Assembly (NCBI GenBank): GCA_030324005.1 | Contig: JARDVH010000042.1 | Span: 123,617,028 to 123,681,027 of the forward strand | Reading direction: 5' to 3' | Source: Negaprion brevirostris | Lineage: Eukaryota | Length of the DNA stretch: 64,000 nt | Shown: positions 4,105-46,710 of the stretch, piece by piece | Position numbering within the stretch: the first letter of the stretch is position 1 | How the letters are laid out: every line of letters begins with the position of its first letter | Position numbers and translations under genes: made by a program | Notes under the pieces: model-generated | The model's input: only the letters and a program-made list of their open reading frames with translations | Database searches by the model: none | Told to the model about the DNA's origin: nothing

Positions 4105-4360
4105 TGCTAATAAAAACAGCAAGAGCTGGAAACACTCAGCAATCCTGGCAGTATCTGCGGAGAGAGTTAATGTTTCAAGTCAAATGTGACTCTTCAGAAT
4201 TGAAGGAAGGTAGAAATGTGATGGGTTTGACATGGTGGAAGGGGAAGGAAGAAGGGATCGGGTGGAGAGCAGCAGCAATTAAGTTACAAAGATGTCCTGG
4301 AATAAAAGACAAAGAGAGTGGTAATAATTATTGTAAAGAAACAAGAAAGGATTGGTTAGT
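4105..4360 (-). mobile_element. Penelope-like element 3' terminus (family B) with degenerate hammerhead
   Basis: gctggaaacactcagcaatcctggcagtatctgcggagagagttaatgtttcaagtc...tcttcagaa; reverse strand reads CTGAAGA-gtca/tgac-GAAACATTAAC; related to 29994-30117 and 34092-34208. Confidence 0.6.
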
Positions 4361-5175
4361 TTAGATGGCTAGCACTCGATTCAGATTACCACCTACAACC
4401 GGTCTCTTGATTCCAATCCAATAGGCTCTTTGACTTGGCTCTTAATGGAGAATAATTATAATTAATTTTGGGCTAACCCCTCTTTGTAGACACTCAACTG
4501 TCTTGCATAATTTTTGTAGCTAAATTTTAGGATAAATGTTGAAAGATTTTATATTTTTTGTAGTTTTGTGTCCTTTTATCATGCAATTCTCAAAATATTG
4601 TGGGTTATTTAAAGCATCCAGCATTTCTAGGATGATTGCCAGATCCATCAGAAATCATTTTGCAGCCATATATAATTTTTCATAGATCTTGTTTCACGGT
4701 GAGATTTCATTTTCAAGCGGCATTAAAAGCAGCTTGGGATTCCAAATCCTCTTATCTGCTTCCAGCTTTACCAAGGGCGTGCATTCTTTTCTTTGAGTTA
4801 CTTACATGCCCTGCATTTAGGAAAGCATTCTTGTGAACTGAAGTTAATGTCATGGAAAATGGCTTTGGTTTCTTCCAGCAGAGTTAATGAGCTGCAGGTA
4901 CTGGTAATTGAATAGCCTGTCGTTAGGTTATGTACAAAGTTTCCACTTGAGGTGGCCTCAGAATTTCATCAGCATTAAGAAATTGCCATCACTTCCCTCA
5001 ATGCTCTTCCCCCTAACATTTGAATTAGAGCACTGATTTTGTTTCCTCCATGCTAAAGGAGATTAAATGCTGGAATTGCAACATAAATTTGATAATATGT
5101 TGAAGATGTTTCATCAAGCATTTAAGGTGACAGGAGGATCTCTGATTTGAATTAATATGAATCCTTGTTCTTCAG

Positions 5176-5376
5176 AAAGTTCATGAAGACCTGACAGCTG
5201 CAAATAAAAAGATAAACAATTGGCGCAGTGAATGTTCTGAAAAAGATGCATTGATTGACACACTGAACATGGAGCTACAAAATATGAAACACAACTTTGA
5301 GAGGGAGAAAAACGTTGTTGCTGAAGCTAGAAATGAAATTCAAAAACTTGCACGATCTCATCAAAAGGATACAGAG
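5176..5376 (+). CDS. CCDC171: CCDC171 coding exon (window exon 2), KVHEDLTAANKKINNWRSECSEKDALIDTLNMELQN...IQKLARSHQKDTE
   Basis: Acceptor ccttgttcttcag, donor GAG|gtattg, 201 nt, phase 0-0; resembles recalled human ...CADREALISTLKVELQN...ELQKLSQAFHKDAE. Confidence 0.9.
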
Positions 5377-5675
5377 GTATTGTGATGAATTGCAAGTTAA
5401 TCTCTTAACTAAACATTTGTAATTGCTTTGCTATGTTCAGCACCGTTGTATGTGGCCCATGTATATGACAGCTTTCACACCATAGCTTAATTTAGGATTT
5501 CTGACAAGTACATTATACACATTCACTTATGTAATGATTAGTCTTTAGTTTTTGTTACTGTATAGGTAACTGACCTGATCTGAGGTCTCTTCATCATAAA
5601 GCACTTAATATTCACAAGAATGGATATGTGAAAATTTAAATTTTCTGATAGTTTGTGAATAGTTAAAAAAAAATT

Positions 5676-6360
5676 GGCTTGCATTTGTTGCCCAACCATA
5701 ATTACCCTTGAGAAGATGGTGGTGAGCTGTCTTCTTGAAGCACTGTAGTCTATGTGGTGTAGGTACATCCACAGTGCTATTAGGGAAGGAATTCCAGAAT
5801 ACTGACTCGGTGACAGTGAAGGATTAGTGGTGTACTTCCAAATCAGGATGGTGAGAAACTTGGGGGAGCTTCCAGGTGGTGGTGTTCTCATGTATCTGCT
5901 ACCCTTGGCCTTCTAAATGGTAGTCATGATGTGGAGATGCCAGCGTTGGACTGGAGCAAACACAGCAGAAGTCTCACAACACCAGGTTAAAGTCCAACAG
6001 GTTTATTTGGTTGCAAACACGACTAGTTTTGGGGGCTCTGCCTCTTTGTCAGGCGAGTGGGGAGTTCTGATCACAAACAGGGCATATAAAGGCACTTCAT
6101 AGCATTTGTGGGTTTTGGTGAGTTGCTGCAGTGCGACTCATAGACGCTACACATGTCTGCCACTATACTGGTGGTAGAGGGAGTACATGTTTATGGCTGG
6201 GGTGTCAATCAAGTGGCTTCTTTGTCCTGGATGGTATTGAATTTCTTGACTGTTGTTAAAGCTGCACTCATCCAGGGAAGTGGAGACTATTGCATCACGC
6301 TCCTGGCTTGCACCTTGTAGATCGTGTTGGGGAGTCAGGAGGTCAGTAACTTGCCATAAT
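5676..6360 (-). mobile_element. CR1-clade LINE (family 2) 3' end, interrupted by a Penelope terminus
   Basis: Reverse strand encodes decayed SFTV...WNSFPNSTV...FKKTAHHHLLKG C-terminus followed by the ggttgggcaacaaatgc tail; same family at 26045-27760, 50483-50748, 53060-53252. Confidence 0.75.
5928..6097 (-). mobile_element. Penelope-like terminus (family A) with CpG-decayed hammerhead
   Basis: gatgtggagatgccagcgttggactg...aagtctcacaacaccaggttaaagtccaacaggtttatttgg; homologous to 26731-26932; nested in CR1. Confidence 0.7.
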
Positions 6361-9300
6361 GCGCTGTTGATTATCACTTGATAAACTTGTTGTCATTATG
6401 TTGCAGTCATTAATATTTCATTGTGGATATCATCATGAATGTCCCCAAAGACCTGTCATAAACAAAAGAATAANNNNNNNNNNNNNNNNNNNNNNNNNNN
6501 NNNNNNNNNNNNNNNNNNNNNNNNNNNNNNNNNNNNNNNNNNNNNNNNNNNNNNNNNNNNNNNNNNNNNNNNNNNNNNNNNNNNNNNNNNNNNNNNNNNN
6601 NNNNNNNNNNNNNNNNNNNNNNNNNNNNNNNNNNNNNNNNNNNNNNNNNNNNNNNNNNNNNNNNNNNNNNNNNNNNNNNNNNNNNNNNNNNNNNNNNNNN
6701 NNNNNNNNNNNNNNNNNNNNNNNNNNNNNNNNNNNNNNNNNNNNNNNNNNNNNNNNNNNNNNNNNNNNNNNNNNNNNNNNNNNNNNNNNNNNNNNNNNNN
6801 NNNNNNNNNNNNNNNNNNNNNNNNNNNNNNNNNNNNNNNNNNNNNNNNNNNNNNNNNNNNNNNNNNNNNNNNNNNNNNNNNNNNNNNNNNNNNNNNNNNN
6901 NNNNNNNNNNNNNNNNNNNNNNNNNNNNNNNNNNNNNNNNNNNNNNNNNNNNNNNNNNNNNNNNNNNNNNNNNNNNNNNNNNNNNNNNNNNNNNNNNNNN
7001 NNNNNNNNNNNNNNNNNNNNNNNNNNNNNNNNNNNNNNNNNNNNNNNNNNNNNNNNNNNNNNNNNNNNNNNNNNNNNNNNNNNNNNNNNNNNNNNNNNNN
7101 NNNNNGTCATTCTCACTAATAAATGGGCCAACTTATTCCATCCAACATACCCCACACATCAGTGTTCATTTCTTACACTTCTCCCCTTTTTCACAGTACC
7201 TGGTTACAATTTGTGTTTTTGTTTATTTCTCCATAGATAACTGACTGGTCCTGCTGACAAAGACAACCTTATCAGGGACGCTTGGCCCCCAATAATAAAC
7301 ACTAATCAGCTAATAAGGGATAACTGCTCTTGTCTGTAATTTGCAACCCAAAAAATGGCCTGAAGTATTCTCCAATTTTATTATCTGCTACAACCCTCTC
7401 CTATTCACAACTGATTTTATAATGTATTTGTTTAGCAAATTGTCTAAGCTTAGGCATTTTTATTCCAACGTGGAAATAATCATCCTTGTGCCCCATTTGG
7501 CAATTACAATTTCACAATTTGCCATAAATTCACATCAAAGCAAAGCAAAGCCCAGTGTTGTGAAATCAGTCCCTGAAAATTTCAAGTAAAGCATCCACCA
7601 AACAGTGTTGTCCAAAGAAATGTTGCAGTATATGTGGCCTTCAGCAGTCAGTAATCTACCGCATTCATCTCTGCCTTATTCCAAATTTGATTTTAAATAT
7701 TTACAACATCATATATCTTCCCCACTAGAAATTACTGCTGAACTGTTATTGTCCATGAAACTTGCAGGATGAACGATGGCTAGCTTTAAAGGGAACATCA
7801 ATGTTTTATTTGTGAAACATAAGCAGATAATAGTCCACACACTCATTGTTTTTATCGATTTTCAGTCCGCAAGGAGGGTTGTTTACTTCCTGTGTCGGAT
7901 CAAATGAAGCTGACTAGACCATTGTTTATAACCATCAAATATTTGAGAAAAACTAGTCCAGTGATTGGTGAGCAATACTATTCAAAGATGCTTGGAGCCT
8001 CTGTGTGTGTTATTTATATCGGTCTGCTTGTTAGCTTCAGATATAAACTGTAATCAGAAAATATACTGAGATTACAGTAGTTCTGCGCATCTTTATGGAT
8101 GTCATAAAGTTACATAACATGTAAGCGAGGTCTTGGGGTAATTACAGCAAGGACGCCTCCTGAAATGTCTATTGTATTTTCATATTAAACCATGTGTAAT
8201 GTGGCATCATAAAGTTCATGAGACTATCAGAGTAGGATAGAGAAATATATGTCCATAGTTTGTATTGAATAATGGACCATTAACATCCACAAGCAACATA
8301 TTTAATAACAGAAAGTCAGAAATAACCATCACCTCATCACCATGTCTGTTCTGACAATTTTCGGTGTATGACAATTTTCCTCTTGGCACAATTGCTGTAC
8401 AAATCAGTTTAGATTTTTATTTACAAGACAACAATACACAAATTTATCCATTCAGGCCTTTTATATATAACAAACTTCTAACATTCTTCACGCATCTTAA
8501 GTTATCTGTATGGTGCTTATTATTGCAACTTAATTTCTGAAGTGAGCAAGTGTAAACTTCATCTTTCCACATGGCAGAGTTGCACCTTTCAATATTAATC
8601 TGTTCGGGTGAGACTGAATTAGTCCCGAGTTTAGTTTAGGGCTTAAGAACTGGTTTACACTCATTTGTCAAAAACCTGGCCTTGAATCCTGAGCCTCAAA
8701 GCAGTCCGAAAGCTCTTGAAACACCCTGATTTTGAGGCAATGTCTTCTTAGTCCTCAGCGCATGAACTCAAAACTGACCGAAGGTGTACAAAGTAGCTGG
8801 CAAAATTGTTTGTATCGCTGATGTGGAATAAGCTGCTTCTAATAGATGCAGCAAGATGAGGGGCCTTGAAGCTTAAATTCTTCCATATTGCTAGTAAAAG
8901 GTATTGAAAAATGGATGAAATTCGGCAACATTTTTTTATTGTGATGAGAAATGTCATGGATTGACATATTGCAAATTCTTAGAGAAACATGAGTCTGTGA
9001 AATATGTGTCTGTAAGTCCTAATAAACAATCATTTCAGCTGAGTCCTAGAAAAACTACACTTACACACGTGGACCATAATTTCTGACATCAATCCTTTGG
9101 AACAAACTGCGTAAAATAAAAAAAATGTATTGGAAGGAAAGCATTAGAAAGAGTTTCTTGCAGTTTTAAAGGAGGGACCGTATCTACTTATTGAGCTTGC
9201 ATCCTAGTTTAAAACTCACCCAAAGAACTCTTTAGCTTGGTCTACACAGGGTGAAAATTTATGCAATCCAGAGGCTGCCTGCTTAGCTGGCAACAGCTGC

Positions 9301-9437
9301 TGGATTATCCTGTGGGGTAGAAGTTGTTAAACAATTCCTTTGTGACTGGTGGAGCATGTTTCTGCTCATCTGGCTTCACTGAACTAATGGGCTTCACTCG
9401 GACCTGTTCCTACCCCCTCAATTTGCCTTATTGAATA

Positions 9438-9612
9438 AAGGTAAAGCCTCCATAGTCCCAGATAACCATAGACGATTTTAACCTGAGGATCACTACACCT
9501 TAGGTGAGCGGCAAGGCAGAAAAGGAAGGGTCTTCATGAATAACCTGAACTCACACTATTGGCATCACTCTGTATTCCAAGCCAGTCAACCAGCCAACTG
9601 GGCTAAACCAAC
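9438..9612 (-). mobile_element. tRNA-derived SINE (additional family), degenerate
   Basis: Reverse strand starts ggttagcccagttggctgg (A-box-like), followed by ...agtgtgagttca (B-box remnant), and ends atctgggactatggaggctttacct. Confidence 0.55.
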
Positions 9613-10226
9613 TAAGGCTCCCCTGTCCTCCTTCTCAGTAGGGAGAAAGCAAATCAACTTTTGCATTCACTCTCCTTCAAGTTCTCTCCTCTCTCTTACC
9701 GTCTCTCATGAGGCTGTTTCTCCTTTCCATTCCATCTGGTGCACTTTCTCTCTCCAGTACTTTTCTCCCTACCACTTTTTGGAATCACCTTCTAATCCTC
9801 TCAATATATCCTTTCAGTTACCTTCATCCCCATTAAACATTATCCTTGGTGCCTTTACTTTGCTATCTGGGAATGCTTCCACCTTTTCTGGAGTTGCCAG
9901 TTCCCTCACTGGCTCCATTCTTCCCAGGAATAGTTTTGTATATCCTTTTGTGATTTTGTTATCCTCCATAACAGAAAGCTACATCACAAATGTAACCTGA
10001 CACTCATCCAATCATGTTATTTAACTGTAAAGTCATTGCATTAACTATTCTCAACGCAATTGCAACTTTAGATGTGAAAATCACAGCTTGTTAAAATCTA
10101 TGTGGCAACGATGCAAATCAACAATCACAAGAGGATGTTGCAGCATGTTGGCAAGATGTCACAAGATGCATCTTGTTAAGTTAATTTGTTCTTCCCCTTA
10201 GACTTGCATAAATGTACTCAGGACTA

Positions 10227-10328
10227 TCACAGAATGCTATAGTGCAGAAGAGACCCTTTGGCCCGTCAAGGCTGCATCGATACACAAAAGGCCCTGACCT
10301 GCCCAACTAATCCCATTTGCCAGCACTT
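10227..10328 (-). mobile_element. CR1/HER1-like LINE 3' tail
   Basis: Reverse strand aagtgctggcaaatgggattag...gggccaaagggtctcttctgcactatagcattctgtgat; tail of the type shared with HE1. Confidence 0.65.
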
Positions 10329-10663
10329 AGAAATCATAGAAACCCAACACTACAAAAAGAGACCATTTGGCCCATCGAGTCTGCACCGACCACAATCCCA
10401 CCCAGACCCTAACCCCATATCCCTACATATTTTACTCACTAATCCCTTTAACCTACGCATTTCAGGACACTAAGGGGCGATTTTAGCATGGTCAATCAAC
10501 CCAATCCGCACATCTTTGGACTGTGGGAGGAAACTGAAGCACCTGGAGAAAACGCATGCAGACACAAAGGGAATGTGCAAAATCCATACAGACAGTGACC
10601 CAAGCTGGGAATCGAATCCAGGTCCTTGGAGCTGTGAAGCAGCAGTGCTAACCACTGTGCTAC
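10329..10663 (-). mobile_element. HE1-type V-SINE, near full length
   Basis: tRNA head (gtagcacagtggttagcactgctgc A-box; ggattcgattccc B-box), central V-domain (gggtcactgtctgtatggattttgcac), CR1-like tail. Confidence 0.9.
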
Positions 10664-10664
10664 A

Positions 10665-11780
10665 TGTTGTGCCTTTGTTTAAGAAGGTCTGCAGGGAAAA
10701 GCCTGGGAACTACAGATCAGTGAGCCTAATGTCTATAGTGGGTAAGTTGTTAGGAGGTATTCTGAGAGATAGAATCTATAAGCATTTAGAGAGGCACAGA
10801 CTGATTAGGGACAGTCAGCATGGCTTTGTGAGTGAAAAATCATGTCTCATGAATTTGAGTTTTTTGAAGGGGGAACCAAGAAGATAGATAGGGCAATGCA
10901 ATTGACATTGTTTACATGGAATTTAACAAGGCCTTTGATAAGGTACCGCATGGTAGGTTGTTGCATACGATTAAATCCCACATGATCCAGAGTGAGGAAG
11001 ACTATTGAATACAAAATTGATTTGACAACAGAAGCCAGAGGGTGGTCGTAGAGGGTTGTTTTTCAAACTGGAGACCTGAGACCAGTGGTGTGCCTCAGGG
11101 ATCAGTTGTTACTTAACCTCCCATCCAAATCATTAATATAAGAGACATGTTTGTAAGTTTGCAGGTGACACCAAGATTGGTGGCTTGGTGGACAGTGAAG
11201 AAGATTATGTAGGATTACCAAGGAATCTTGATCAATTGGGCCAGTGGGCCGATGAATGGCAGGTGGAGGTTAATTTAGATAAATGCAAGGTGATGCATTT
11301 GGTAGATCGAATCGGAGCAGGACCGACTCAGTTAATGGTAGGGCATTAGGAGAGTTAAAGAACAAAGGTTTAGGAGTACAGGTTCATAACTCCTTGGAAG
11401 TGGAGTCACATGTGGATAGAGTGGTGAAGAAGGCATTCAACGTGCTTAATTTCATTGGTCAGAAACATTGAGTACAGGAGTTGGGACGTCTTACTGAAGT
11501 TGTACAAGACATTAGCAAGGTCACACGTGGAATATTATGTACCCTATTATAGAAAGGATATTATTAAACTAGAAAGAGTGCAAAAATGATTTACTAGAAT
11601 GCTACTGGGACTTGATGGTTTGAATTATAAAGAGAGGCTGGATAGACTGGGATGTTTTCCCTGGAGCGTAGGAGGCTGAGGAGGCTACTTATAGAGGCCT
11701 ATAAAATAATGAGGGGCACACACAAGGTAGCTAGTCAAAAACCTTTCCCAAAAGTAGGGGAGTCAAAACTAGAGGGACAT
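10665..11780 (+). mobile_element. CR1/HER1-like LINE ORF2 (reverse transcriptase) fossil
   Basis: Decayed translation VVPLFKK...PGNYRSVSL...DSQHGFV...DF.KAFDKVPH...SGVPQGS...KFAGDTKIGG...FSLERRRLR, with frameshifts and stops. Confidence 0.92.
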
Positions 11781-13879
11781 GTTGCACAATGGGAAAGGGC
11801 TGCCCCATGGTTTCCAGAGTCACGGACAGTCTGTATTGCAAATTGCATCTTCATACATGAATATACAGATCAGAAATGAAATATAGAGTAAACCGTTGTT
11901 TGTTGTCAAAAGGTGTAGTCTGTGAAGTTTCTTGAGCAGTACTGCAACACTAAATTGGTGATTAATAGCTCTGGTTAATTAGAAAATGCCTCTTTGACTT
12001 TTGCAGAACTGAGAGTAAAACACTATATAGTAAAGATGTTTAATTATGTAACATTGTGTGTCATAATAGCTTAGGATTGGCACTGTGGCCAGACTTAAGA
12101 TACTGATGAGTGGAAAAACAACTATAAGTTGATGCAGTAAGATAGCATTGAGCCTGCTAGTGCAGGCGCAATGGATGGAATGGTCTCCTGCACTATAAAC
12201 GTTCTGTGGTAAACTGCATTTGTAGGGCTAAGGAATAGTGGCTAGCTTTAAAGGAAACTATGGACCTCATTATCTTATATTTAGGATTTACATGTTTAAA
12301 ACTACAGATATTACAGTGTACAGAGATGATGCTGTCTGTCCTTGTCATGTAACGTGAACATTTGGTTATTGCAGCATATGTGTGGTGCTGATATTTACTG
12401 CAGGAGGAAAACAAATTGCCCAGTGTTTTATCTTCCTATGTATATTTACTGTCCCTATCCATTCTATTTTTGTAGTGATTTAGTGGGGACTGTGTATGTG
12501 CATTAGCTTTCTTAGTAGGCGCTTCTGAAAGGTATCTTGGAGACCGACTGGTGTTTCACTGCCCCCTTCTGTGATGACCCACCTCTGGTTTTGCTTGGAC
12601 AGTCCTTCCACTGTAGTACCACCTAGAATTTCCTTGCTTTCATTGTGGGCTGCTTCACGAAAATGGGAATCTCATTCGGTGCATATAGAACGAGGCTGAC
12701 ACCGGAAAGCAGGTCAGTGCTCAGGTCAATGTGGAGTGACCAATAAGTTCTGCCCTAAGAAGTAGGAACCATCAAACCCTACCCTCCACCCAGATTTCTA
12801 CCACACAGCTAAACAAATAATGCTCATAGAGCTACTGGCTATAATTTCTCTTCACAGATTTTTGTAACATTTTGATATTGCTTTCAGAAAATCTGAAATG
12901 TGGTCACTGGCAAATGAGGCCCATTCTTTCTTTAACTTAAACATTAGTCTAATGGGAAAAAAAACTTAGTGATTGGAACATCAAACACTAAGTAAGGCAA
13001 GGAAACTGGTGGTTTGATAACATAAATGGGCAAGAAATCTTGCAATAGAACATTTATATTATTTCCAGCATTTGCATTTGGCTTGGTCAGCGCAAGAACC
13101 CAACATATGACGACATATGCAATAGTCTTTCGTGCTGTGTAACATAGAAAAGGGAAACATGTTTTGATTAGATAAAGTAGATATCATACTTGGTTCCCGC
13201 TCAGCCTCTATTATAAATTCAAAGCCATCTCAAAACCATTCCACACTACATATTAAGGTATCAACATTTTCTTTGTCACCTTTTTTTAAAAGGACAAATC
13301 TCAAATTGGGTTTATTTGCTGTAAAGATGCTCATTCACCAGTTTAGCGAAGACATAACTCATTTATTTACAGGTAAAACCATACAAAGGCTTGCAGCTTT
13401 ATGGCTACAATCAGCTCCTGGGATGACTGAGTACAGAAGACCGCTCATTACGAGGTCACCCACTCTGCTCCCTGACTGGTTCCCTGGGTCATGTGGTTCC
13501 TGGGGTCACTCTGCAGATTGATTCTTGAACGGACCTTCCCCTCTAAGTCCTTTTATACATACATCAATACCTCATTTATACAGTCCAAGATAATTAAACA
13601 TTTAGTGCATGAATTTAAATAATAAAGTCTTTCAGGGGTTTCCTAATCCTAGTGGAGTGGTATAACTCCCCTGTCTGGTGTGCTATCAGCCAAAACCAAT
13701 GACAGGTCTCTCTTCATGCAGTTCCGTTCAACCTGTTTCCATGGAAATGTCAGTTGTGCTTATCACAGGAAGACCAGGTACTTCAGAGCTAAATCAGACA
13801 GCAACAGACATGAATCATGATTTGTCTCCTGACTACTTTGGTGAGCCTCAACCCTCTGTAGCAAATTTGGAAACATGAG

Positions 13880-14160
13880 GCTCAGTTTCATTCTATCTCC
13901 TCTATCTGTAGCCTTCATATTTTTGTACACCTGAGTTGGGTACCCCCTTAGCCTTCTCTGCACTAAGGAAAACAATCCCAGCCTAACCAGCTTCCCTTCA
14001 TAGCTGAAACGCTCCAGCCTGGGCAGCATCCTGGTGAATCTCTCCTGCACCCTCTCTCGTGCGGTCACATCTACGGACCTTTCTTAAAGAGCTTTCCAAT
14101 CAGTCCTATTCCTCTGCCTTCTGATGCAATATTAAGTCTTCCTTTTCTAAATGTTTATTG
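13880..14160 (-). mobile_element. CR1 LINE 3' fragment
   Basis: ORF 13763..14068 contains ERVQERFTRMLPRLERFSYEGKLVRLGLFSLVQRRLRG. Confidence 0.85.
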
Positions 14161-15719
14161 TTTTACTCTGGATTTTCTGTCCACTGATTTTTTTTTTTCT
14201 ATGGGATGATCCATTTCTTTGCAAACTTTATTTTAAAAATGCCCGTTTGGGCTCCATGTGATAGGTCCTGAAGAAGAAGAGGGTGGTCTTACCATAGACG
14301 TGGACAAGCTGATAATTCATTTTCCCAGTATATACAATGTACCACTGCCTCTTTTCTGCCAGGTATGTTGCTGAAAAATGATCATTTGATGGTTTTGACT
14401 GCCATCTGAAGTGACAATTAGGAACATTTTTAAAGGAGTATTTGGCTTCAAAATCTGGAACTACTTTTCTGTCAATGCCAATGTTTATGCAGTTTTTCCG
14501 TGCCCACCAAAAGGTGCATAAGAATATTATACGTTCATCTTCACATTGAGCTGAGGATCTTTGAGATAGCTGTGCAATTATTATTGTTCTTTATGTTAAA
14601 TATTTTTATTGATTGATCATAAATGTTTGGAACTTGCAGTTTCTTTCTTGTATGTACGTGCATATATCTTTTTTAAATAAAAATCCACCAATTGTTTACT
14701 TATGCAGGTCTACTTTTAAGACTGAGTTATTCCTATTTTTGGTTATGGGTAAATAACAGTTTGCACTGTGCTTATTGTGAAAGTCTGCTGAGGCAACATT
14801 TGACTCCACAATGATATTAAATATAGTTCATTGAGACTACTCGCTGTTTATTGTCATCCAGGCCATCAGCATACTGTAACACTTCTGGCCTAGCAACAAA
14901 GCATTATAATGCTATCCCTTCACAATAAATGCAATTGAATTTTAATTTGGATCAAAAATTGTGTACAAATTTTGGAGCCAGAAGTTAAGGTCTTCAGAAC
15001 AAATCACTACTTGTCAGATGTACTGCAGGAGGGGGGGGGGTCGTGGCGGGGGGGGAGGTGGGGGAGAGAGGAGAGAGAGAGAAAAAAGTGCTTGCTTAAT
15101 GAATATTGGCATTTGTAATAGTGCAGCCATTGAGATTTAAATGATTTTTTTCTGGAAGACATATCATATTTAATTGTCCAGCTCAACTGGCTAATTAAAG
15201 TCAAATATGGAATACTAGGAATAGAAATACAGTGCCAAAAATTAATGTGATACCCCATGCATTTCACAAGCATGCATAAGTTGATATTAATGAGGGCTTT
15301 ATCCATCTGAAATTGAGATCATGCACACTTGTAAGATAGATTATTCTTGATGCTACATTCTATAAGTAACTCAGACATTAAATTATTGATGTACATTTTA
15401 ACATTTATTTCAATAACGATGATCATAAATGCAGAAGTTTTTTTGTAGAAGTCACTTAAGTTGTCTCTGTGTGCATTGAGTGGTAATCCCTTGGTGGAAA
15501 TGAAGAATGTAATTCTGGCTATCATTTCTCAGGATAGAACTCGTTAGCTCCTGGGTGAATTTTGCACCCTATAGTAAGATGAAAGTAAGTTTCATTTGAA
15601 AAAGAGTATGATTCATTATGGAATGAGCATCTGATTTTTGGATTGAAAGTGATGAATTCCAAAATTGGGGTTAAGCTAAGATGCTCCAACAAAAAGTGTG
15701 TAAACTAAAAGTAACAAAC

Positions 15720-15862
15720 TGTAAATGCTGGAAATCGGATTAGAGAATGCTGGAAATGCATAAAAATGAAATACTGCGGAAGATGGAAATCCAAAATAAA
15801 AGCAAAACATTGGAAAAGCTCAGATGATTTGGCACTTGAAGAGAGAAACAGAGTGGTTAATG
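15720..15862 (-). mobile_element. Degenerate Penelope-like terminus (family B)
   Basis: aaatactgcggaagatggaaatccaaaataaaagcaaaacattggaaaagctcag...gagagaaacagag resembles 34050-34140 and 4110-4165. Confidence 0.45.
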
Positions 15863-17400: not shown

Positions 17401-17676
<276 letters not shown>

Positions 17677-25146: not shown

Positions 25147-25174
25147 TGCTCTGGGACTAGTTTTACTATCCTGT

Positions 25175-26010: not shown

Positions 26011-26044
26011 AACTTCCTTTATATAGGAGCCAGTCTTTAATTTT

Positions 26045-30430: not shown

Positions 30431-30504
30431 CAAGTAAACTAGAGGTCTGTACCCAGAGTGAACACCTTCAATGCATGATCAAATATACATTCAGGTGAGG
30501 CAGT

Positions 30505-35153: not shown

Positions 35154-35660
35154 GTAAGTACTAGCCTGGCTGTCATTTTTGGATTGAAATTTATCGCAAA
35201 ATGTTTTAGCTGCACATCTTTCATTTTCAAGTTTCCTTTTGATCCTTGACTTGTATTGTGTTCTCAAATCAGGAAGTTAATAGAAATGTGACCATCAATA
35301 TTTGGAATGTCACCCCTCGTGAATCCAGAAAATCAGTATGTCACATCAGGATCAACTGGATACTGAAAAACTTTCTCCCCCATTGGGAAGTCCAATCCTT
35401 AGTTAATTATCTATTCAGTCAGTAGACTTTGGCCACTGCTGGTAATCTTGTTGACCTGGCTAGGTACTATCAAGTGACAACCTGACATTTGACAAGAAAT
35501 CCCTCAGTTCAATATCAGTGTTCACTGTTACCAGTTGGTGCCACCCTCTTCTCAAGTCTGACCTTGAAATGTGTTAAGTCATCATTAGAATTTATTTATT
35601 CTTTAATATCAGTTGGTGAACATTAAGATCTGTATCGTTGGCTTGTTCTTTAAAGATTGA

Positions 35661-36281
35661 AGCTGGGATTCTCCAAAAAAACTAAGTGCCCGATGGCTGG
35701 GAAAACAGGAGAATTTCCCACCTGTTTTTGGGCTTACTTAGCCGAATAAATCTCTGATACTGTGCACCACACAGTTCCTCATGCTGGGAAGTGGGAAAGG
35801 GAGAAGAGCCTCATCTGACTGGAGAGGCCAGCACATACGCTGATCTGTCAGTGGGGAGATTGGTGCACGTGCATTGCCCCCACACCCTCCTCTCCCCCCA
35901 GTCACTGGCTCCCTGATTTCTTTTGCAGGCTCCACCAATTTTTCCCCCCTCTTCGCCGGCTGCTCCTCTGGCCAGCCCAGAATGCCCGTTCCCTTTTTCT
36001 CTCATTGCAGAGTGTGCAATGGATTGCTGTTTCCCCCTCCCCTCACCCTTCCCTGAGTAGGGCTAGTGCCCCTGTGACACTGTCCAGTGACAGGATGCCC
36101 AATGGACAGTGCCAAGATGCCAGACTGGCACTGTCCAAGGGCACAACCCCAAGGTTGATTATATCAGAAAAAAGAACCTTCGAGACTTATGATTGGTCAG
36201 ATGCTGGTCACGAGTCCCGCTAATGTCCCCCGGCTTGCTGCATTATTCGAGCAGTGCAGTGGGCTGGGAGAATCCTGGCCT
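35661..36281. mobile_element. Candidate non-autonomous DNA transposon / MITE (PIF-Harbinger-like ends)
   Basis: Terminal inverted repeats gctgggattctcc (35662) / ggagaatcctggc (ending about 36279) around a GC-richer interior; TSD unclear. Confidence 0.5.
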
Positions 36282-37324
36282 GTATGTACACATGTGCCGG
36301 TTCTGTTTCATGTTGTACTATCTTCAAATTTTAATTTCTAATCTCACCCCCACCACCCCTCCCCACCCCAATCTGAGAATGAGGTGTGTGGTGCTACTGT
36401 CCCATGGGTGCCACTAACTTTAAAATTGCCTTTTTGATTTTTTTTCAATACATCAGCCAAAACGCTAAGTTTTGGCGATCTGTTTGATTGCAGAGTTTAT
36501 TGCAGCCAAGCATGATTCAGTCCTGGTCTGACATACATCTTTCCAGGAAGGGTCACTGGATAGTAATTGGAATTGGAAATGTGGCCAACTTCTCTCCTCC
36601 ATTGCCTAAGGACAATTGTAACATGAGTGGAGATCTAACTGGCATGAGAAGCATTTCTCAAAGGACTCTTGATTACTGTAAGGAATAGTCTGCAGTTTTG
36701 GTCAATGCATAGAATAGTTGGTTTCCCTTCATTCTTTATGGTAGTGGTTCCTCTACAGTACTTATGACTGTCGAATTTTGCCTCATTCCTCCTGATTGAG
36801 GTTTGTTTATGCAGCACTGGAGATTGTTGAATGTTGCACACCATTGATTTCTTTAAAACTCTCTTTGGATCTCAATGGATCAGCTTCCATTTTGTTTGGT
36901 GGCTGTCTCAGTTCCCAAAGGTCATTGGCTGAGGAATCCACAGCTGTTTGCTGGCTTCTCATGGAAGGAATTCATGACTCGTTTTGTCTCGACCATCAAT
37001 ATTGTAAGGAATTTACAGGATGAATTTAAATGCCTGTTCATTTATGTGGTGCAGTTGTTCACCATGGAAAAACTTGAGAATTGATCAATTTCATTCTCCC
37101 TTGAGGGCTTAAGATGATTTCAAATAATGGAACATAGAAGAAGATTCTTCATTTCGAGTTAATCCATGTCCCTCCTGAAGAGGCAGATAGTGGAAAAATG
37201 TTCTACTGTTAGAATGTTTCAACTGTGGTGCGCTCTGCTTCAAGTGATTGTGTGGGAAGCTCATCCAAGCTTTTTCCTTATGAACCGACAAAGGTATGTT
37301 CAATTTCTCTCGGAACATACGCTT

Positions 37325-37404
37325 TCGCCAGTACGGGGATTGAACCTGCAACCTTGGCATTGTTAGCACTGTTAGTGCTTTAATGACGTAAACTAACCAG
37401 CTGA
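37325..37404 (-). pseudogene. tRNA-Ile(AAT)-derived pseudogene or SINE head
   Basis: Reverse strand tcagctggttag[insert]gtgctaacaatgccaaggttgcaggttcaatccccgtactggcga versus vertebrate tRNA-Ile ...TCAGTTGGTTAGAGCGTGGTGCTAATAACGCCAAGGTCGCGGGTTCGATCCCCGTACTGGCCA; CpG decay; acceptor 5' strand missing. Confidence 0.75.
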
Positions 37405-37442
37405 TGGAAAAGCTGGCACCTTTCTGTTCAAAGATACTTACT

Positions 37443-37580
37443 GATTTGCTTTGATTTATTATTGTCACATGCATTAACAATCAGTGAAAAGTATCATTTC
37501 TTGCACGCTATGCAGGCAAAACATACTGTTCATAGAGAAGGAAATGAGAGAGTGCAGAACGTAGTGTTACAGTCATTGCT
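37443..37580 (-). mobile_element. Rex1/Babar-like LINE 3' UTR fragment
   Basis: Same sequence family as 24851 and 32779. Confidence 0.7.
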
Positions 37581-38269
37581 GGGAGGGAGAGAGTTTAAAA
37601 GAGTTAGAATGCAGTTTTAGAAGCATAAGACAAGAGTAAAATATAGAATGAAAAGATATGCTGGGCACAGCTTGCAAGAAGTCAGCTTACTCTGGCACCA
37701 TCTTGGATTTCTTGGAATCAGGGTAAACACAAACTAACTAAAACTTAGAAATGCACTGAAACAGTTTTCAGCCATCTTTCTTCACTTCAGATGGCTGGGT
37801 GACTGTTCATTTGCTCCTGTGTCAGGTCAATTGTCATTGTTCAGCTATAGCAGATAAAAGGTGGCAGGTTCCTCTGAAAGGTTCATGGTAGTTTCAGGGA
37901 AGACCAGCTGGATTCTGGGGGTTGAGGGGGTGTGGGGATAAGGGGTAAGGATTTTTGTCATTGAACTCCACAAATAATATCCACCGTTGTATTCTTTGAC
38001 AAGAGTTCCCTCACTGGAACAATAGTTTGCAAATTTGGTTCCCTATGCAAATATTAATGCATTTCTACAGAACCATAGTTAGAAGTCCTGAAAGACAATC
38101 TAAGCTACTTGAGAGAAAACTGCTATTGTTAAAAACTCTTTCATTAATATTATAAGCAGGAATAACTCATGAGTGTATTGGTCTGTGGAAGAATATGTTT
38201 GCTATGTCTGCAAAATGCAATGGTCAGTAGGAATGATTGATATTAGGGCAGTAGACAGTCAAAAATGAT

Positions 38270-38450
38270 TTGCAAGGAAATAAGGCTTTCACTTCTAGAA
38301 TAGTTCTCAATTGTAGGCTGTCCCAGAGTGTTTTACAACCAATAAAGTAATTTTGAAATTTCGTCACTGTTGTAATGTGGGAAATGCAGTAGTTAATTCT
38401 GCACAACAAGAACTACAATGTGACATTGGTCAGGTAATGTGTTGCAGCAT
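38270..38450 (-). mobile_element. Deu-SINE 3' fragment
   Basis: gtcccagagtgttttacaaccaataaagtaattttgaaatttcgtcactgttgtaatgtgggaaatgcagtagttaattctgcacaacaag. Confidence 0.6.
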
Positions 38451-40224
38451 TGTGGTTTCGGAAGTGAGTTCTAGAAGCAGCAGGGAATTACTAATCAAAT
38501 AACTTTTGGCTAGGAAGCAGAAAGTGAGCAGCCACCCAGAGTTGAGACACAAACTGGAATATAGGATTGGAGCAGCTTTCAACAAGAGAGTAAATCTCGC
38601 CCTCTTTCACCCAGCTGACTTTTACTTAAAGAGTGAGAACAGATGAGAAATGTCAATATTTTGCAACACAGTCTATTTTTGACAGAACTGAAACGAGCAA
38701 CATTGAGCAATATATTTTACAGAATAAATTAATTGCTACAAAGTGTATCTCTACCTGTATTTTTCTAGTTATTTATTGACTATTAGATTAGTGCAGAATG
38801 ATGTAACCATTTAATGAGCAGCAAGTTTCCTGTGAGGGACTATAATCTACAAACTTTTGCCCATTGTCTGTCTCTTGTTCCTCCTTCTGACTGACTACGG
38901 AAACTGGTGGTGATATTAAGCATAAGTAAAAATAAAATGAGCATTCTCTCCTCTAGCTGTCAGTGCTGTATGTAACCGTCATTGATGGGTGCCATGTGCA
39001 TATCTTTTACATTGTACAGTGCATTATTTTTATAAAACAAGTACACTGGTTTGAATTATTGTTTTGGTTTGCATTTGTGTTTATAAAGCGTCAAACCTTG
39101 ACCCTCACTACACATGTGCAACAAAGATGAACTTTCCAATAATCTCCCCTTTCTTTTGGAAAATTGACATTTCTTAAAAAGAATGAATCTTTCCATAGGA
39201 GTTGTGATTGGAGGACCCAAATATGAAATGGTGAATGATACCCCCTCTGCCTGTTGTCAACAATGTTATGGAAATTTAGATGAGAGAAATTCTGATCTTT
39301 TTTTTTTCTGCATGATGATTTTTGGGTTTCCTCGAGAATCACTTCATGAAACTCTGAGAGCGCCACATCGCAGTCTCCAGTCAGAGACACTGGAACACCC
39401 CCAACCATGAAAAATGATCCACCTTCTCCACTGAAGCGTTTTGTATAGAATACTTTGGTAGCGTATTCTGGGTTTTTCTGTGGTCTGAAACCTAGCAACC
39501 TGAGCCACTCTTGCAATGTTGGAGGTCTGGAGTTTATCTCAGTAGATTTTAAGCTGCTGGATGACATTGTGATATCACTACCCACGCCAACAGGTCAAAG
39601 GAGAACTCATGTCAAGTCCTATTAAAATTTTCAGTTATGTGACACTACGTAGGACCCAGACGCCTCACCTTTTGACCATTAACAGTTGATTGTGTCAAAG
39701 CTGTACCAGTTTTGTCCAGCTTCCATTAACATTGTGGGCAAGATATTAACTCACTTGAAACCCTTTGGATTGAAGTTAACATTGGGTCCTATCCATTACC
39801 GGGGAAGCATGTGGGACATGCCTTTCACATCTTGTAACGCAGTGATTGTCCATCACCTCTGATGGTTGTGTTAAAAAGGAATTTGCCATTTACATCTGAT
39901 GTATATAAATTATTTAGATGGCTTTGGGAACCACCTATTGAGAGCCATTCTGGAACCTGAAATAGGTCATCTGCTTCGTTCAGGCATCATATTCTACAAA
40001 TGGACATTGTTATCTTCACAGAATCCCAGAAATAAAATATTGTGCTGTTCTTTTAGAAATTTCAGTAGGTAATTTACCAAAGTAATAGATCACAGAAGGC
40101 CATTCAGCCCATTTTAATTTCCCTAAAACATTACAGATGTTCCTATCTCAAGTATTTATCCAGTTTGTTTTGAAAATTACTATTGAATCTGCTTCCACTG
40201 CCTTTTCCACAGGGCACTTGATTA

Positions 40225-41250
40225 TGACGAGATATTAAATTTGGTGCAGGCAGAGGGCATCTGAGGTTTGCATATATCTTTGAAGGTAACAAGACAATGA
40301 GAAAACAATTATAAAAACATCACTTGAGAAAAGACAAATACTGCCGAAGCTTTTACTCATCAGGATGAGTTTGTAATGATACTAAATCTCAAAGGGAACA
40401 GCAATTTATCCTGCATGTGAAAAGGGTGGTGATGTGTTGGCAAGTGGACTTCAGTTGGTGGATGTGTTGCCATAGAGAATGGACGAGGAAATAGCTAACT
40501 GCCACGTTTATGTTTAGATTCAAACCAAATCAGCTCTGGTCAAGGCAATGGCTGTTCCCTGAAGATTATTGTTCCCTTTGAGATTTGGTATTATTGTATG
40601 TGCTGATGAGTGCAAGATGAAATACTTTGTGAGCACGTCTTTTTTTCAGCAATAAAGTTCTGTAATACCAAACATCTATTTGTTGTAAAAATACATGGTT
40701 GCTTGGCTTCATTATGGAGATCTGAAGCTCAAAAACAAAGAAGGTATACTAAATCTTTATAAATCACTGGTTGCGTCTCAGATGGAATATTCGGACAACC
40801 ACACTTTGGCAAGGTTGACAAGACCTTACAAAGGTGCTTACTAGAATGGTGCCAGGAATTAGGGATTTTATTTATGTGGTGAGATTGGAGAAGCTGTGGT
40901 TATTCTTAGAACAGAGAATGTAAAGGGTGGAGTTGACAGATGTGTTCAAAATTGTAAAAAATTCAGAGAAGCTGTTTTCAGTGACTAGGAGAGCAAGTAA
41001 TCAAGGGCACAAATGTTAGGATTCGACAACAGATCACAGTGGAGATGAGGAAAAATAGTGATTTATTATTGTCTGGAATGCATTGCCTGAAAGGATGATG
41101 GGTGAAGACTTAACGAGAACTTCCAAAGAATCGGATTGGAAATCAAAGATAGAAAATTTGCAGGACTATGGGGGAAAGAGCAGGAGAGTGAATCTATTCA
41201 GATAATATTTACAGGAAGCTGGCATGATGGGCTAAATGGCTGCTTCCTGT
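40225..41250 (+). mobile_element. Old CR1 LINE 3' region, interrupted by the family C palindrome
   Basis: Decayed LYKSLV...EY, LEKL.LF.LEQR, WNALPER motifs and gatgggctaaatggctgcttcctgtg tail; collinear across the 40325-40685 insertion. Confidence 0.7.
40325..40685. mobile_element. Family C hammerhead-bearing inverted-repeat element (about 360 bp)
   Basis: Arms actcatcag...atactaaatctcaaagggaacagcaat / attattgttccctttgagatttggtat...gCTGATGAgtgcaagatGAAA (core 40603-40622) with a spacer of about 160 bp. Confidence 0.7.
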
Positions 41251-43572
41251 GTATTTCCAGCATTTACTGAAAGGATCTCCATATTGCAGTAGAATGTGGG
41301 TGACAAGTCAATGAGCGAATCCAATAAGCATTCTTTAGGTTGATGTTTTGAAGCAGTACTGTTTCTTGGATTTGGGTTTTACTGTTCACTGGTCTGTAAA
41401 GAAATTTCTCTTAAAGGAAAATCTAAAACATTGCTGTCATCCATGTGAATAGAACTAAGTTACTTTCTAACTGATGCTCTGGGAGCCTGATGTAGATCTG
41501 TGTTAGCCACACAAGGAAATAAGTGATTTGTGAAAGGAAGATAAGTTAGTTTAAACATTTCATTCATCCATACCAATTCTTTAGGATTATCTTGATCCCT
41601 TGAACTCGGTTAATAAGATACAGTTTAACCTTGGTTTGGAGTGTGCCTAGGTAAACATCCTTTTCCTGCAGTTGGCTGGGGAAAAGTGACACTCTACCAG
41701 GCTAGGTGACTTCCCACACAGGCCTGTAATTTTACTTACTACATACCTGTTTTTTAATCTCAACGCATCCATATGGCAAGTGGGGTCCATCATTCATTGC
41801 ATACTAAAATTGCTACTTCGCAGGCTTTCAGAGTACAAACGAGAACTGGTTAACTCACTGAATAATTAAAATTCGAGTCTGCTTGTTGTAGGACTCTCTT
41901 GTGATATTGGACTTCCAGTGCCTGGTTTGTGACCAACTTGCCCAGTAACCCATGCACTATTGAGCAGGAAGGACACTGCAACAGCTCAAAATGCTTCTCT
42001 GTTACATACAGGTTAGTTGATAGTTTGTCATTTGAGGTTGCTGGTCAATTGTTTGGCATTTTCTGATCTTTTTCTGCCCCAGTGAAAAGAGTCATTCTGA
42101 GCTGAAACGATCTGAGCTGCCTTCTAAACAGTTTACTGCAATTATATGTAATTGACTGGAGGAGGAGCAGCAAGAAACAAATGAGCAAACAGGANNNNNN
42201 NNNNGCTGAAGTCGGGAGCGCTACACAGGAGGCTTTCCCCGAAGTGACTCTACAGGGAACATGAACATCTTGAAGGAACAATGCCTCCGATGCTTCCACT
42301 TCATCAAGGAGGCCATCACTATTTAGCCTGCCACAGTCACAACCTAAGTCTTGGGGAAGAGCATGGTTGGCGGCTGTCAAGGTTGCTGTGGTCTTTAACT
42401 TTTATGTTACAGGTCAAGACAGATGATATTAGCAACATCTTCCCATTCATAGTTTATCATCGCGATAGGTGTAAATGTTCAATGGTTCAGTTGCTTTGAT
42501 GAGGAAAGTCTGGTAACGGAACAATGCTCCATGTTTAATTGGTTAAATCTGGGTGTGGACTCAGAGAAAAGTAAACAGACACAAAGGCTGTTAAAACTGA
42601 ACTGAAACATGGAGTCAACATTTTAAAGCATCATATAAAAATATAAATCTCCTGCATTCTTTAAAACTAGTGTCATCTCTACATTATTCTAAGGAATCTC
42701 AAATATGTGAAATATACAACATTAGGTATGACTCCTTTTACCAAAAGGAACATGTAAATATCTTATCCCACAGCCAAAGCAAATCAGGATGAGAGAGTGT
42801 TAGGCTTTTTCCCCAAGGTCTATGGTTCTCTCAACAGCAACATTTACGTTACTTGAACCTGGCACCCTTCTCAATAGTAAGTGATTGCATTCCCTCAAAT
42901 GTTCAGCTGGTTTGTGGCTACACATCATGCAGTTTTGTGCCTGATTTGCTGGCAGCTGTCATGGTTCATTCATCCCACAAACTCTCTGCTTATTTAATTT
43001 GATATTGGACAGTATGGATAGAGTAAGATGCTCAGACCACAAGTGGGAGTAAACCCAACATCTGTATCCAAGTGAATAACTAATGGAAACACCAAATGTT
43101 AGCAAACCATAATCCCAATTTTAGAAAATCAGTGTGACTGATTCCTTCTCTTAAAGCTGTCTTGTTGGCTCAATTTCGTTCCACAAAGTAGGTCATTTTG
43201 TACCGCAAATTCATTCTATTTTTGCAACTGTTGCAATAGCTCAATGTTTATGGGCAGCAGAAAGCGGATGTTATCATCTTCGTCGAGGTCAGATTCACTA
43301 AATCGTCTTCTATAATTTTAGAAATTTGCCCTAATGAAATTGAATTTTTGATGCTGAAAGTTATTTTGCGAACAGGTTGCTTGAGAAAGGCAAGTTGTCA
43401 CAGGCTGAAGACTGAACAATACTTAGCAGCACATCCAGGGAAACATGCACAATTCCTATCATTCAAAATGTGTGTTAAAAACTGATGATATTTAAAGGCA
43501 AAAAATGTTCCACATTGAAATTAAACCTTTTTTACTGGAGTCCACACAAATATTGGCGTTGGTGTTTTATAG

Positions 43573-43764
<192 letters not shown>

Positions 43765-44780
43765 TAAATCATATGGGTCACTCTGTAGGAAAAATTCAGT
43801 GCTTTCCCCTAACCTGTTTGTTTGATATTAAAAATGTACTTTTATGCTCAACCTAACTGAAAGCTCAGCCTTTCACAAACACACCAAAGGCACACTGTGT
43901 ATTTTATGATCAAGCTATAACCTATCCCACTAGCAGATTTTTAGTCAAGATTGTGAGTAGCTAGAATTTTCAGTAAGGTATAGCAAGCACTTGCAGCCCT
44001 CCAAATTGTATTCGTTTATTGTACTGTGTAATAGGCTGATTGCAAAATAAATAACGCATAATGTGACTGGTTACAGTCAGTATGCAGGTAAGGGCCAGCT
44101 AACTGCTGCTCTGTTACAGTACATTGATGTGACCATGTATTCTCTGGCAATCAACTTCTCTGACAGTGTATAAAGCTTAACATACTTAATGCAATGTAAA
44201 GTGATACTTTCAAGTTGCCTTGAATGTCCTCAGCAATAAGCTGCTTTTCCATGTTGATTAAATGTGTCTACTTGTTCCCTTAGCATTTAATGAAACCAAG
44301 AGTTATCAACTGCCTCCTTCATTGCTGATGAATGGAGATTACTTAATTTTACTTCAGTGAAGACTGACTAATAGTGGATCCACAATTGGCTGATTTCTGC
44401 TTTAAGTCATTCACGGTAGCAATCTGACAACTTGTATTTTTCAGAATTTTATATGTTATAAAAAAGAGTAATTCTGAACTTTTCAGTTTTGAAAATACCT
44501 TAACAAGCTCCAAACATAGTGTAATGGCAGTGAACTGTGTTTGTCTTGAAGCTTCAGTGATGTACAAAATCACAATCCTTTGCATAGAGAAATTTGAAAC
44601 CTTTTTTATAATGAATATCAAACTATGTTTTGTGTACATTTGTCAATGACTTTTGTTTCTCTTGCCAACTGGTGGACTTGCAGCTAAACAGCATGTGGCT
44701 TGGATGGGTGTGGCAGTCCTGTAGATGCAGGAAAAGATAGAATGGATGTTAGTGAAATGTGAAAATTCATTGTGAATTGG

Positions 44781-45140
44781 CGAGATGGTGGCATTGTGGT
44801 AAAGTCTGATGTCTAGTAATTCAGAGGTCCAGGCTAATGTTTTGGGAGATGGGTTCAAATCACACCACAGCAGCTGAATAAGTCTGGAATATAAAGCTGG
44901 TCTCCATAATTGTGACTATAATAACTGATTGTTGTAGTCGATTGTTGTAAAAATCTATCTGGTTCACTAATGTCCTTTAGGGAAGGAAATCTGCCGTCAT
45001 TACCCAGTCTACCATACGTGTGATTCCAGATCCACAGCAATGTGGTTGACTCTCAACTGCTGTTTGAAATGGTCTCAGTTCAAGGCTACTTGGGGATGGG
45101 CAATGATGATCTTACCAGTCCCATGAAAAAAATAATAAAA
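44781..45140 (+). mobile_element. tRNA-derived SINE (non-HE1) with a tail shared with CR1 family 2
   Basis: A-box ggtggcattgtgg, B-box gggttcaaatc, body ctggttcactaatgtcctttagggaaggaaatctgcc, tail ggggatgggcaatgatg...cccatgaaaaaa. Confidence 0.75.
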
Positions 45141-45504
45141 ATGTAAGGTAACAGTTGTTATTTTAGGCAGAGTTTACATAAAATATAGCACTGAATCACC
45201 ATCCAGCATTCTGCAAATGAATTTGTCCCTTATCTAATTGATCATAGGAAATCATGTATATGGCATGTCAGGCTATCCATGTCCTTGTCTCTGTCTATAA
45301 AAAGTAGTCAGAATGCAGAATCATCAGCTAATTTCCCTCCAGATGTGTTTTGAGTCCTCAGTTCTTAATACAATTCTGAATTACCCAGAAGCTTTGGGGA
45401 GCCTATAGTTCCCTGTTGCTTTCTCTGTGGCAACATCTCAGGCAATTGGAATGACATCATCCAGTCGGCATTCTTTAGCCCTGTAGGATAATAATTGATT
45501 GAAA

Positions 45505-45600
45505 TTTAGTTTTCTTGTGTTTTTCCTGATGAGGCAAGATGAAAAGCTTCAGCAACATGTCTCACTTTTCAGCAGAATTTAAGATCTGTATTACTAAGTG
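45505..45600 (+). mobile_element. Family C hammerhead-bearing terminus (single arm)
   Basis: CTGATGA (45526-45532) ggcaagat GAAAAGCTTC (45541-45550), then ttttcagcag...tctgtattac as in 40640-40670. Confidence 0.65.
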
Positions 45601-45739
45601 CCTGCTCGCTTTTTGGTGTTTTTGACTAGGCTGTACTTGGGTTTCCTACAAAGTCATATCAGTCAACATGTTACTTCAGAAAGACTATGAACAGAAACAG
45701 ACAATGTACGCTACCTCATTTTGCAACGTACGGTTCCAT

Positions 45740-46710
45740 TTCAAACACTTCCCTTGCTTGTCACCTCGGTCTATATTTCACGTGATGTACTGACCACCAA
45801 TCTTTACAAGCTCTCAACTATCTTGATTAAAGCTCCTTCACACCCTGCTTCCTGTCAGGATTCCATCACATTCTCCGTCATCTGTTTCAATGATGCTACC
45901 TTTGAAAATGGTGCTTCTGACATGTCTGACATTTTCCTTAACTCACCCTGATGACTCGTCCCCTTTCCACAACACCTTCCTTTGCAATCGCAGAAAATGC
46001 AGAGCCTGCCCCTTTACCTCCATGCTCCTCACTGTCCAAGGCCACACACACTTCTTTCAGGTGAAGCAACATTTCACTTGTATCTCTTTCAATTTGGTCT
46101 ACTGTTTTAGCTGTTCCCTATGTGATCTTCTTTACACTGAGAAGAATAAATGCAGACTGTGTGACTGCCTTGTTAAACACCTTTGCTTGGCCCACAATCG
46201 TAACCCCGACTTTCCTTGCCATTTCAATTCAGCACCTTACTCTCATGCCCAAGTGTCTGTCTTTGGCCTGCTGTAATGTTCCAGTGAAGCCAAACGCAAA
46301 ATGGAGGAACAACATCTCATCTGGTTAGGCACGTTATAGCTCCCAGGATTCAACAACTTTACACTGGGACCATTCTCCTCTATCCTGACCCTTTTATTAT
46401 AAAATATATTTTTTGTTCCAATGCAAACTCACCACCCACCATCAAAACCAGGCCATCTGTCACATATTCTTTAGTTTTGTTTTCACTGAGCGCTGACCTT
46501 ATCCTCCCATTAACACAATCTGATATCTTTATGCAAACACTAGCACCATCTTCTACCATTAGCCCTTCCTCTGTCTCATGATCTATATATCTTTGTTGTG
46601 ATCTCGCCTAGCTCCCAACAATCACTTACCTTCTATTCCTCCAGCTGCTTGACTCTCTCTTACATGGTATAAAATTGCCTTTCTCCTTCTCTTTAACTCT
46701 GAAGAAGTCC
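45740..46710 (+). mobile_element. Penelope-like element fossil (RT C-terminus, Cys-rich linker, GIY-YIG endonuclease, 3' terminal repeat)
   Basis: SSHPASCQDSI...F; CNRRKCRACPF...FQVKQHFTCISFNLVYCFSCSLCDLLYTE (decayed VY...CxxC...LYIGE); terminus ends at ctctgaagaagtc. Confidence 0.85.

Follow-up and report, generated by a model that had tools for sequence, protein, structure and literature searches.

Penelope-like elements (PLE) coding for a GIY-YIG endonuclease (EN+ PLE) have been described to leave insertions with inverted pseudo-long terminal repeats (pLTR), as in Pen2a_Av and other elements (PMC3846280; summary in 10.1101/2021.04.23.441226). Metazoan PLE also carry minimal hammerhead ribozymes, and dual hammerhead motifs lying on opposite strands 100-700 bp apart have already been noted in Schistosoma (PMC4209133). 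In the Anolis Poseidon element PAc, the tail is reported to be bounded by two internal reverse transcriptase (RT) starts, both DNA strands are cut and extended, the protein is a predicted dimer, and the hammerhead is not needed for insertion (PMC11167929). For L1, both target strands are reported to prime, the cDNAs join by microhomology, and copying of the cap leaves a 5' G (PMC2912911); a cap-derived G has likewise been reported for SVA. Where the cited PLE papers discuss these features, the origin of the pLTR, of the inverted copy, and of the one-sided tail is described as unresolved.

The stretch analyzed here (the window) comprises 64,000 nt of Negaprion brevirostris, on a 125-Mb contig (JARDVH010000042.1) of a 2.69-Gb genome. 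It contains ten PLE-end loci in three families (two in A, five in B, and three in C), all of which are intronic in CCDC171. These loci were found by inverted-repeat searches and by searches with profiles built from genome copies, in agreement with an initial annotation that had listed about ten intronic loci in three families. That annotation had gone on to propose a new hairpin retroelement with a masked ribozyme. This proposal fails, and the value of the loci lies in what they record of PLE integration, which is ordinary in kind. We consider it likely that each hairpin is a single dead-end PLE insertion that arose when a pair of short cDNAs, one primed on either strand of one cut, were joined head-to-head.

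Unless stated otherwise, counts refer to a sample of 1.264 Mb (1.085 Mb of called bases), made up of 1.2 Mb picked regardless of content plus the window, and positions are counted from the hammerhead core, whose first base is 0. The sample contains 30 pairs and 41 unpaired loci of family A, 14 and 58 of family B, and 2 and 6 of family C, with 5 of the 46 pairs being the window's own. Genome totals extrapolate to ∼150,000 A, ∼150,000 B, and ∼17,000 C loci. The 46 pairs are all head-to-head, against a single tail-to-tail neighbor, and there are 1 (A) and 3 (B) tandem neighbors. Junctions match within 2 nt in 0/435 locus pairs for A and 1/91 for B. Genome-wide, an exact pattern finds 478 family A pairs; by hand count, a modal 29-nt center is present in 7 of the 50 pairs listed, and the remaining 43 differ in junction length or letters. 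Relative to the tail, the modal center is found in one orientation in L292 and in the other in L294 and L303. The 5 exact family C pairs found genome-wide by a tight pattern are all different, and locus lengths rise continuously to those of kb-long inverted elements.

The initial annotation had envisaged a self-propagating hairpin unit and had itself named variable junctions as what would speak against it; the palindrome center indeed varies from copy to copy. A weaker form of the idea is that non-autonomous hairpins with a fixed center propagate at least as a minority subfamily, the one with the modal A junction. Besides the seven listed copies sharing that junction, it can appeal to the existence of non-autonomous PLE derivatives, namely retrozymes (bioRxiv 10.64898/2026.07.22.740005) and Chlamys (PMC8557442), as these sources present them. 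We nevertheless find it highly improbable, considering the 43 differing pairs, the two orientations of the modal center, the near absence of junction sharing in the sample, and the fact that short hairpins have no upstream promoter and grade in length into kb-long elements.

Target duplications, typically of 8-13 bp, flank 20/43 pairs compared with 1/258 mismatched controls. A PLE tail is found on exactly one arm in 26/30 A and 12/14 B pairs (38/44), and in no pair are both arms tailed, where 5.6 (A) and 2.6 (B) would be expected if tails were independent. The outer ends are fixed, with medians of +84/+120.5 (A) and +95.5/+127 (B), i.e. ∼32-36 nt apart. Because the junctions are variable, the target is often duplicated, and the tail is one-sided, each pair is likely one insertion event, with an architecture that has already been published.

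That architecture has a published explanation, fold-back self-priming (PMC3846280), in which one cDNA (or an antisense template) snaps back and trimming of one side by the endonuclease leaves a one-sided tail. It accounts for the short or zero filler at many junctions. It also predicts that the two arms of one pair resemble each other more closely than arms from different loci do (0.88 versus 0.82), as does priming of two cDNAs. However, a snap-back copy cannot gain a tail that its template lacks, and among 36 scorable pairs the tail-less arm reaches further 5' in 16, the tailed arm in 16, and there are 4 ties. Moreover, both arms often end at the 5' wall described below with filler between them. 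The one-sided tail, the symmetry of the arms, and the location of the wall at the predicted start site favor two independently primed cDNAs over fold-back, which we judge to be distinctly unlikely. As a separate observation, junction filler is often a short extra copy of the hammerhead (G000:C1 L296, L297, L302, and others), which suggests repeated template switching before joining.

Breakpoints were obtained from a joint split of both arms, excluding arms that scored <34 or ended before +40; arms adjoining N were left out of the breakpoint counts, in which 82/101 (A) and 83/86 (B) arms were kept. The 5' ends of the arms cluster just ahead of the core: 22 fall at -15..-1 versus 1 at -70..-16 in family A (n = 82), and 19 versus 1 in the same bins in family B (n = 83). 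Pooled 5'-end peaks are at -7/-4 (A) and -4/-3 (B). This wall is not an alignment limit, since the flank at that point in pairs is the opposite arm. Every family has a TATA-like box, and TATA+30 corresponds to -5 (A), -4 (B1-B4), and -15 (C), with additional CCAAT boxes in family C. In locus L132, an arm starting at -4 lies on a near-full-length element with a near-full open reading frame (ORF). We infer that the PLE's own RNA polymerase II (Pol II) transcript begins at the inner wall.

In family A, the base preceding the predicted +1 fits a copied cap. By hand count, it is C or T in 100/100 listed long copies (G in 0), whereas among 100 listed non-C copies it is G in 55, T in 29, and A in 16, and at filler junctions G in 11, A in 1, and T in 0. 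A corresponding signal in family B is not claimed: G outnumbers A by 28 to 11 among 100 listed copies, versus 0/77 long copies, but is absent at filler junctions.

Might the wall instead mark a splice acceptor or the ribozyme cut? A pyrimidine tract followed by YAG lies at the wall in all B subfamilies, and an intron ending at stem I is reported for D. virilis (PMC4209133). Against this, the arms retain the AG, and on the upstream side of the wall the sequence belongs to the opposite arm or to unrelated flank. Nor is there an excess of 5' ends at the predicted ribozyme cut (A, 3/50, p = 0.23; B, 4/64, p = 0.61). Such an origin of the wall is thus very unlikely.

The series of events that we propose for two cDNAs joined head-to-head is as follows. 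The PLE protein, a predicted dimer, would cut both strands with a stagger of 8-13 nt. By analogy with the Anolis element, one cDNA would be primed from each of two internal RT starts, which would correspond to the outer ends of the arms. The RNA template would begin at the PLE's own promoter and both cDNAs would run toward its 5' end, so that the arms would be run-off copies of ∼90-130 nt or shorter. The two cDNA ends would then be joined via microhomology or filler. Owing to its place just behind the start site, the hammerhead would be copied as well, and the inserted copies would decay afterward. Longer arms, from templates with upstream sequence, would give classical inverted elements.

Several points weigh against this proposal. 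Target duplications flank only 4/75 unpaired arms, and 2/18 of those at the wall, which the model leaves unexplained. Family C contributes only 2 pairs to the sample. Copies are 11-17% diverged, which limits breakpoint precision to a few bases, and in off-target flanks the wall is less sharp (A, 4 versus 3; B, 6 versus 2). The start site is predicted from TATA spacing only, the A and B1 boxes being weak TATA matches, and in B the wall coincides with a pyrimidine-rich YAG resembling a splice acceptor. No intact 5' pLTR-ORF junction was found in five loci examined, which is why internal initiation is taken from PMC11167929. The cap signal in family A is not clean either: the opposite arm supplies some of the G, with 11/23 G cases unambiguous by hand count, the 1.264-Mb sample shows no G excess (A, 1/8; B, 1/6), and B3 filler junctions show no cap-G.

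One extension of the two-cDNA proposal is doubtful. It supposes that PLE replicate via a strong-stop step like that of LTR elements and that the shark palindromes are failed jumps, two per cut. RT would start internally and run off the capped 5' end ∼100-130 nt away, then normally jump to an RNA cut by the hammerhead in the downstream repeat, at its 3' end, regenerating the pLTR. The overlap of ∼35 nt between start site and cut would serve as an R region. If so, the palindromes would serve as a fossil map from which start sites and RT starts could be read for every PLE family.

As judged from coding frames upstream, families A, B, and C each represent the 3' end of an endonuclease-bearing PLE. 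This upholds the initial annotation, which had attributed these hammerhead-bearing ends to PLE machinery. The endonuclease in the window (45941-46370) has 7,927 candidates in the genome. Such loci have a B end ∼500 nt downstream and, in many cases, an inverted arm 0.3-2.7 kb upstream. Family B frames match P0122, a protein with RT and GIY-YIG, and in L124, L129, L132, L138, and L139 the same ORF matches the RT part of P0122. Family A ends lie behind another endonuclease, which is distinct from this one but shares its cysteine linker; it is 27-35% identical to P0122 and matches P0122 only from residue 469 onward. For family C the link runs via relatives: its upstream frames match proteins of which 5/14 scanned match GIY-YIG. 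These relatives came from a search of representatives, a homolog search and an Atlas search of the C frames having given no match. Pfam scans of the decayed PLE frames found no domain. The CX2-5CxxC linker is present in A and B and absent from C and its relatives. By the linker criterion given in PMC8557442 for the Neptune/Nematis versus Penelope/Poseidon clades, A and B look Neptune/Nematis-like and C looks Penelope/Poseidon-like. In addition, at L129:3035-4997 a B2 element is partly repeated in tandem, so that its endonuclease is present twice; the upstream repeat breaks off at +17.

The ten loci in the window are listed below.

4101..4411, minus strand: unpaired PLE 3' end of family B (B4), with 3' untranslated region (3'UTR) and decayed hammerhead
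5925..6095, minus strand: unpaired family A end, with tail and TATA-like box present and core mutated
15769..15879, minus strand: unpaired family B (B1) end, heavily decayed, starting at -5 (predicted start site)
26721..26932, unstranded: family A head-to-head pair, left arm tail-less (+6..+82), right arm tailed (-11..+117)
29990..30150, unstranded: family B head-to-head pair, left arm from +23 (no CUGAUGA), right arm from 0
30269..30433, unstranded: family C head-to-head pair, with near-identical flanking 13-mers at 30269-30281 and 30421-30433
34049..34221, unstranded: family B head-to-head pair, arms beginning at +27 and +39
40325..40683, unstranded: family C inverted pair with longer arms (-187, -40), promoter region included
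45400..45597, plus strand: unpaired family C end, sense to CCDC171, core letters intact and stems broken
45941..46712, plus strand: 5'-truncated PLE with broken GIY-YIG endonuclease containing a CxxxxCxxC linker, 3'UTR, and TATAAAA at 46668

On the letters, no copy in the window is a clean ribozyme. The five inverted pairs of the initial annotation stand, but not the hammerhead content ascribed to them. Neither arm of the pair at 34092 contains a CUGANGA core. At 29994 a core is present in the right arm only; this core is intact but lacks the 5' strand of stem I. At 26731 the right core reads GUGAGGA (core C3 mutated), the left arm is without core, and the target duplication is weak. In the 30278 and 40325 pairs both arms reach the core, but the core or a stem is broken. 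The 13-mers flanking the 30278 pair were taken as a target duplication by eye, the automatic scan having missed them. Likewise, the locus at 45.9-46.7 kb is a PLE end as annotated, but it contains coding sequence, the decayed endonuclease mentioned above, followed by the 5' half of a B-type hammerhead from 46699.

At the level of families, the three type-I hammerhead layouts of the initial annotation were reproduced by the profiles from genome copies, including the palindromic stem III (AGCU, ACGU, and AAGCUU). All three references fit a minimal type-I layout, with a CUGANGA/GAAA/UH core, stems I and II, and the palindromic stem III, although stem II has only 2 bp in family C. The profiles gave 0 matches on a reversed 1.064-Mb sample, indicating that the matches are not due to chance, and the stems covary across B subfamilies. 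Core letters of family A vary less than other sites (22/490 versus 793/6992), a comparison confounded by subfamily variation and CpG decay, and all 11 core letters are kept in 21/197 arms. A Rfam scan with E up to 5 returned generic hairpin matches and no hammerhead family, which is unsurprising for decayed minimal motifs. Family B comprises at least four subfamilies, one of which has a U3-A8 core (UUGACAA), a variant reported for Schistosoma Cercyon elements. This B2 core has compensated stems, occurs beside C3-G8 sister subfamilies, and lies ∼500 nt after the endonuclease (L125, L126, L129, L122, and L123).

The ends have further sequence features. By eye, an ATG inside the family C core opens a stop-free frame through the tail (window 30372 onward), and the PLE ORF may begin here. 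The antisense of -6..+2 in family A forms a perfect splice donor (CAG/GTGAGT), repeated across tens of thousands of intronic sites, and on the sense strand B ends have a pyrimidine tract and YAG that resemble an acceptor. These signals are a possible source of cryptic exons.

Does the antisense arm mask the ribozyme, as the initial annotation suggested? When two window pairs were folded against shuffles, both formed long hairpins (z = -12.5 and -10.1), in which the paired motif is predicted to be sequestered. Masking is thus predicted from folding. Selection that keeps the antisense arm because it prevents cutting of host pre-mRNA is another matter. Most loci are unpaired (41/71 A and 58/72 B), unpaired copies inside CCDC171 are 4 sense and 5 antisense, and pairs are not enriched in this gene (6/15 versus 40/136 outside, p = 0.39), although weak selection might escape notice with only n = 15 loci in the gene. 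Furthermore, no arm reaches the core in 18/44 A and B pairs, and intact 11-letter cores are few, as given above. Minimal hammerheads are also reported to be inactive as monomers (PMC4209133), and those of PLE needed protein (PMC11167929). Selection for masking is therefore hardly credible.

The host gene was identified by a window exon with 95% identity to CCDC171 of the shark Mustelus asterias, whose protein maps as 23 ordered matches on the plus strand over 212 kb, nine of them inside the window.

3349..57643, plus strand: CCDC171, the host gene, with nine of its coding exons falling within the window
3349-3441, 5173-5376, 17467-17640, 29651-29842, 34637-35152: CCDC171 exons
43645-43761, 54093-54320, 55323-55514, 57401-57643: CCDC171 exons (continued)

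The density of PLE ends is about half as high inside CCDC171 (15 loci/192 kb, with the gene taken from window -71123 to 141436) as outside (136/893 kb), with no strand bias. In a related organism, contigs that differ little extend over the 29994 and 30278 loci; no single piece spans the whole stretch. Other repeats in the window include an abundant shark repeat resembling a tRNA-derived short interspersed element (SINE), present in both orientations (1-150, 10330-10663, 21924-22211, 30679-30982, 47390-47717, 56666-56927, and 62679-62970), which we take to be HE1-like. Decayed RT fragments of long interspersed elements (10474-10887, 13763-14083, 18997-19377, 20756-21169, and 47066-47449) are presumably CR1/L2-like and RTE-like, going by their motifs. 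Two short inverted repeats with 25-nt arms (51734-51913 and 62099-62312) are unrelated to families A, B, and C.

A literature search leaning toward open-access papers, with Repbase, Dfam, and supplements outside its scope, found nothing on a start-site wall or on shark PLE palindromes; those databases or paper supplements may already describe the families or the wall. Two known classes were considered and set aside as identities for the shark loci. They are not non-LTR retrozymes, since tandem direct repeats are all but missing (the tandem neighbors noted above, A 1 and B 3), nor a self-propagating element of the SINE or miniature inverted-repeat type (MITE), since no fixed internal structure is common to the copies. 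The ∼10^5 head-to-head stubs expected genome-wide, a figure projected from the 46 pairs present in the 1.085 Mb of called bases, make up a large natural test set for PLE integration, and the Anolis in vitro system can directly test two cDNAs versus fold-back.

Compared with known systems, as far as the cited accounts describe them, the shark loci are closest to the inverted-pLTR insertions of EN+ PLE. They share with these a head-to-head inverted 5'-truncated copy with a junction palindrome, a tail of 30-40 bp on one end, a target duplication of 8-10 bp, and a TATA box ∼20 bp before an initiator-like TCACT. Unlike the Pen2a_Av type, shark arms are mostly 50-130 nt long and without ORF, number tens of thousands of loci, and have a 5' wall. 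Like the metazoan PLE hammerheads in PMC4209133, the shark motifs have the minimal core, a bulged base before stem II, palindromic 15.2-16.2, and the U3-A8 variant, and they occur mostly as single dispersed copies; unlike them, the shark copies are mostly decayed and are known here from sequence. With the non-LTR retrozymes (bioRxiv 10.64898/2026.07.22.740005) they have in common that they are non-coding, PLE-derived, and have a type-I hammerhead, but retrozymes are tandem direct repeats, whereas the shark loci are inverted pairs or solos. L1 twin priming uses adjacent parts of one RNA, whereas both shark arms copy the same stretch. Finally, PAc is an in vitro system, whereas the shark data are genomic, consisting of head-to-head stubs and a start-site wall.

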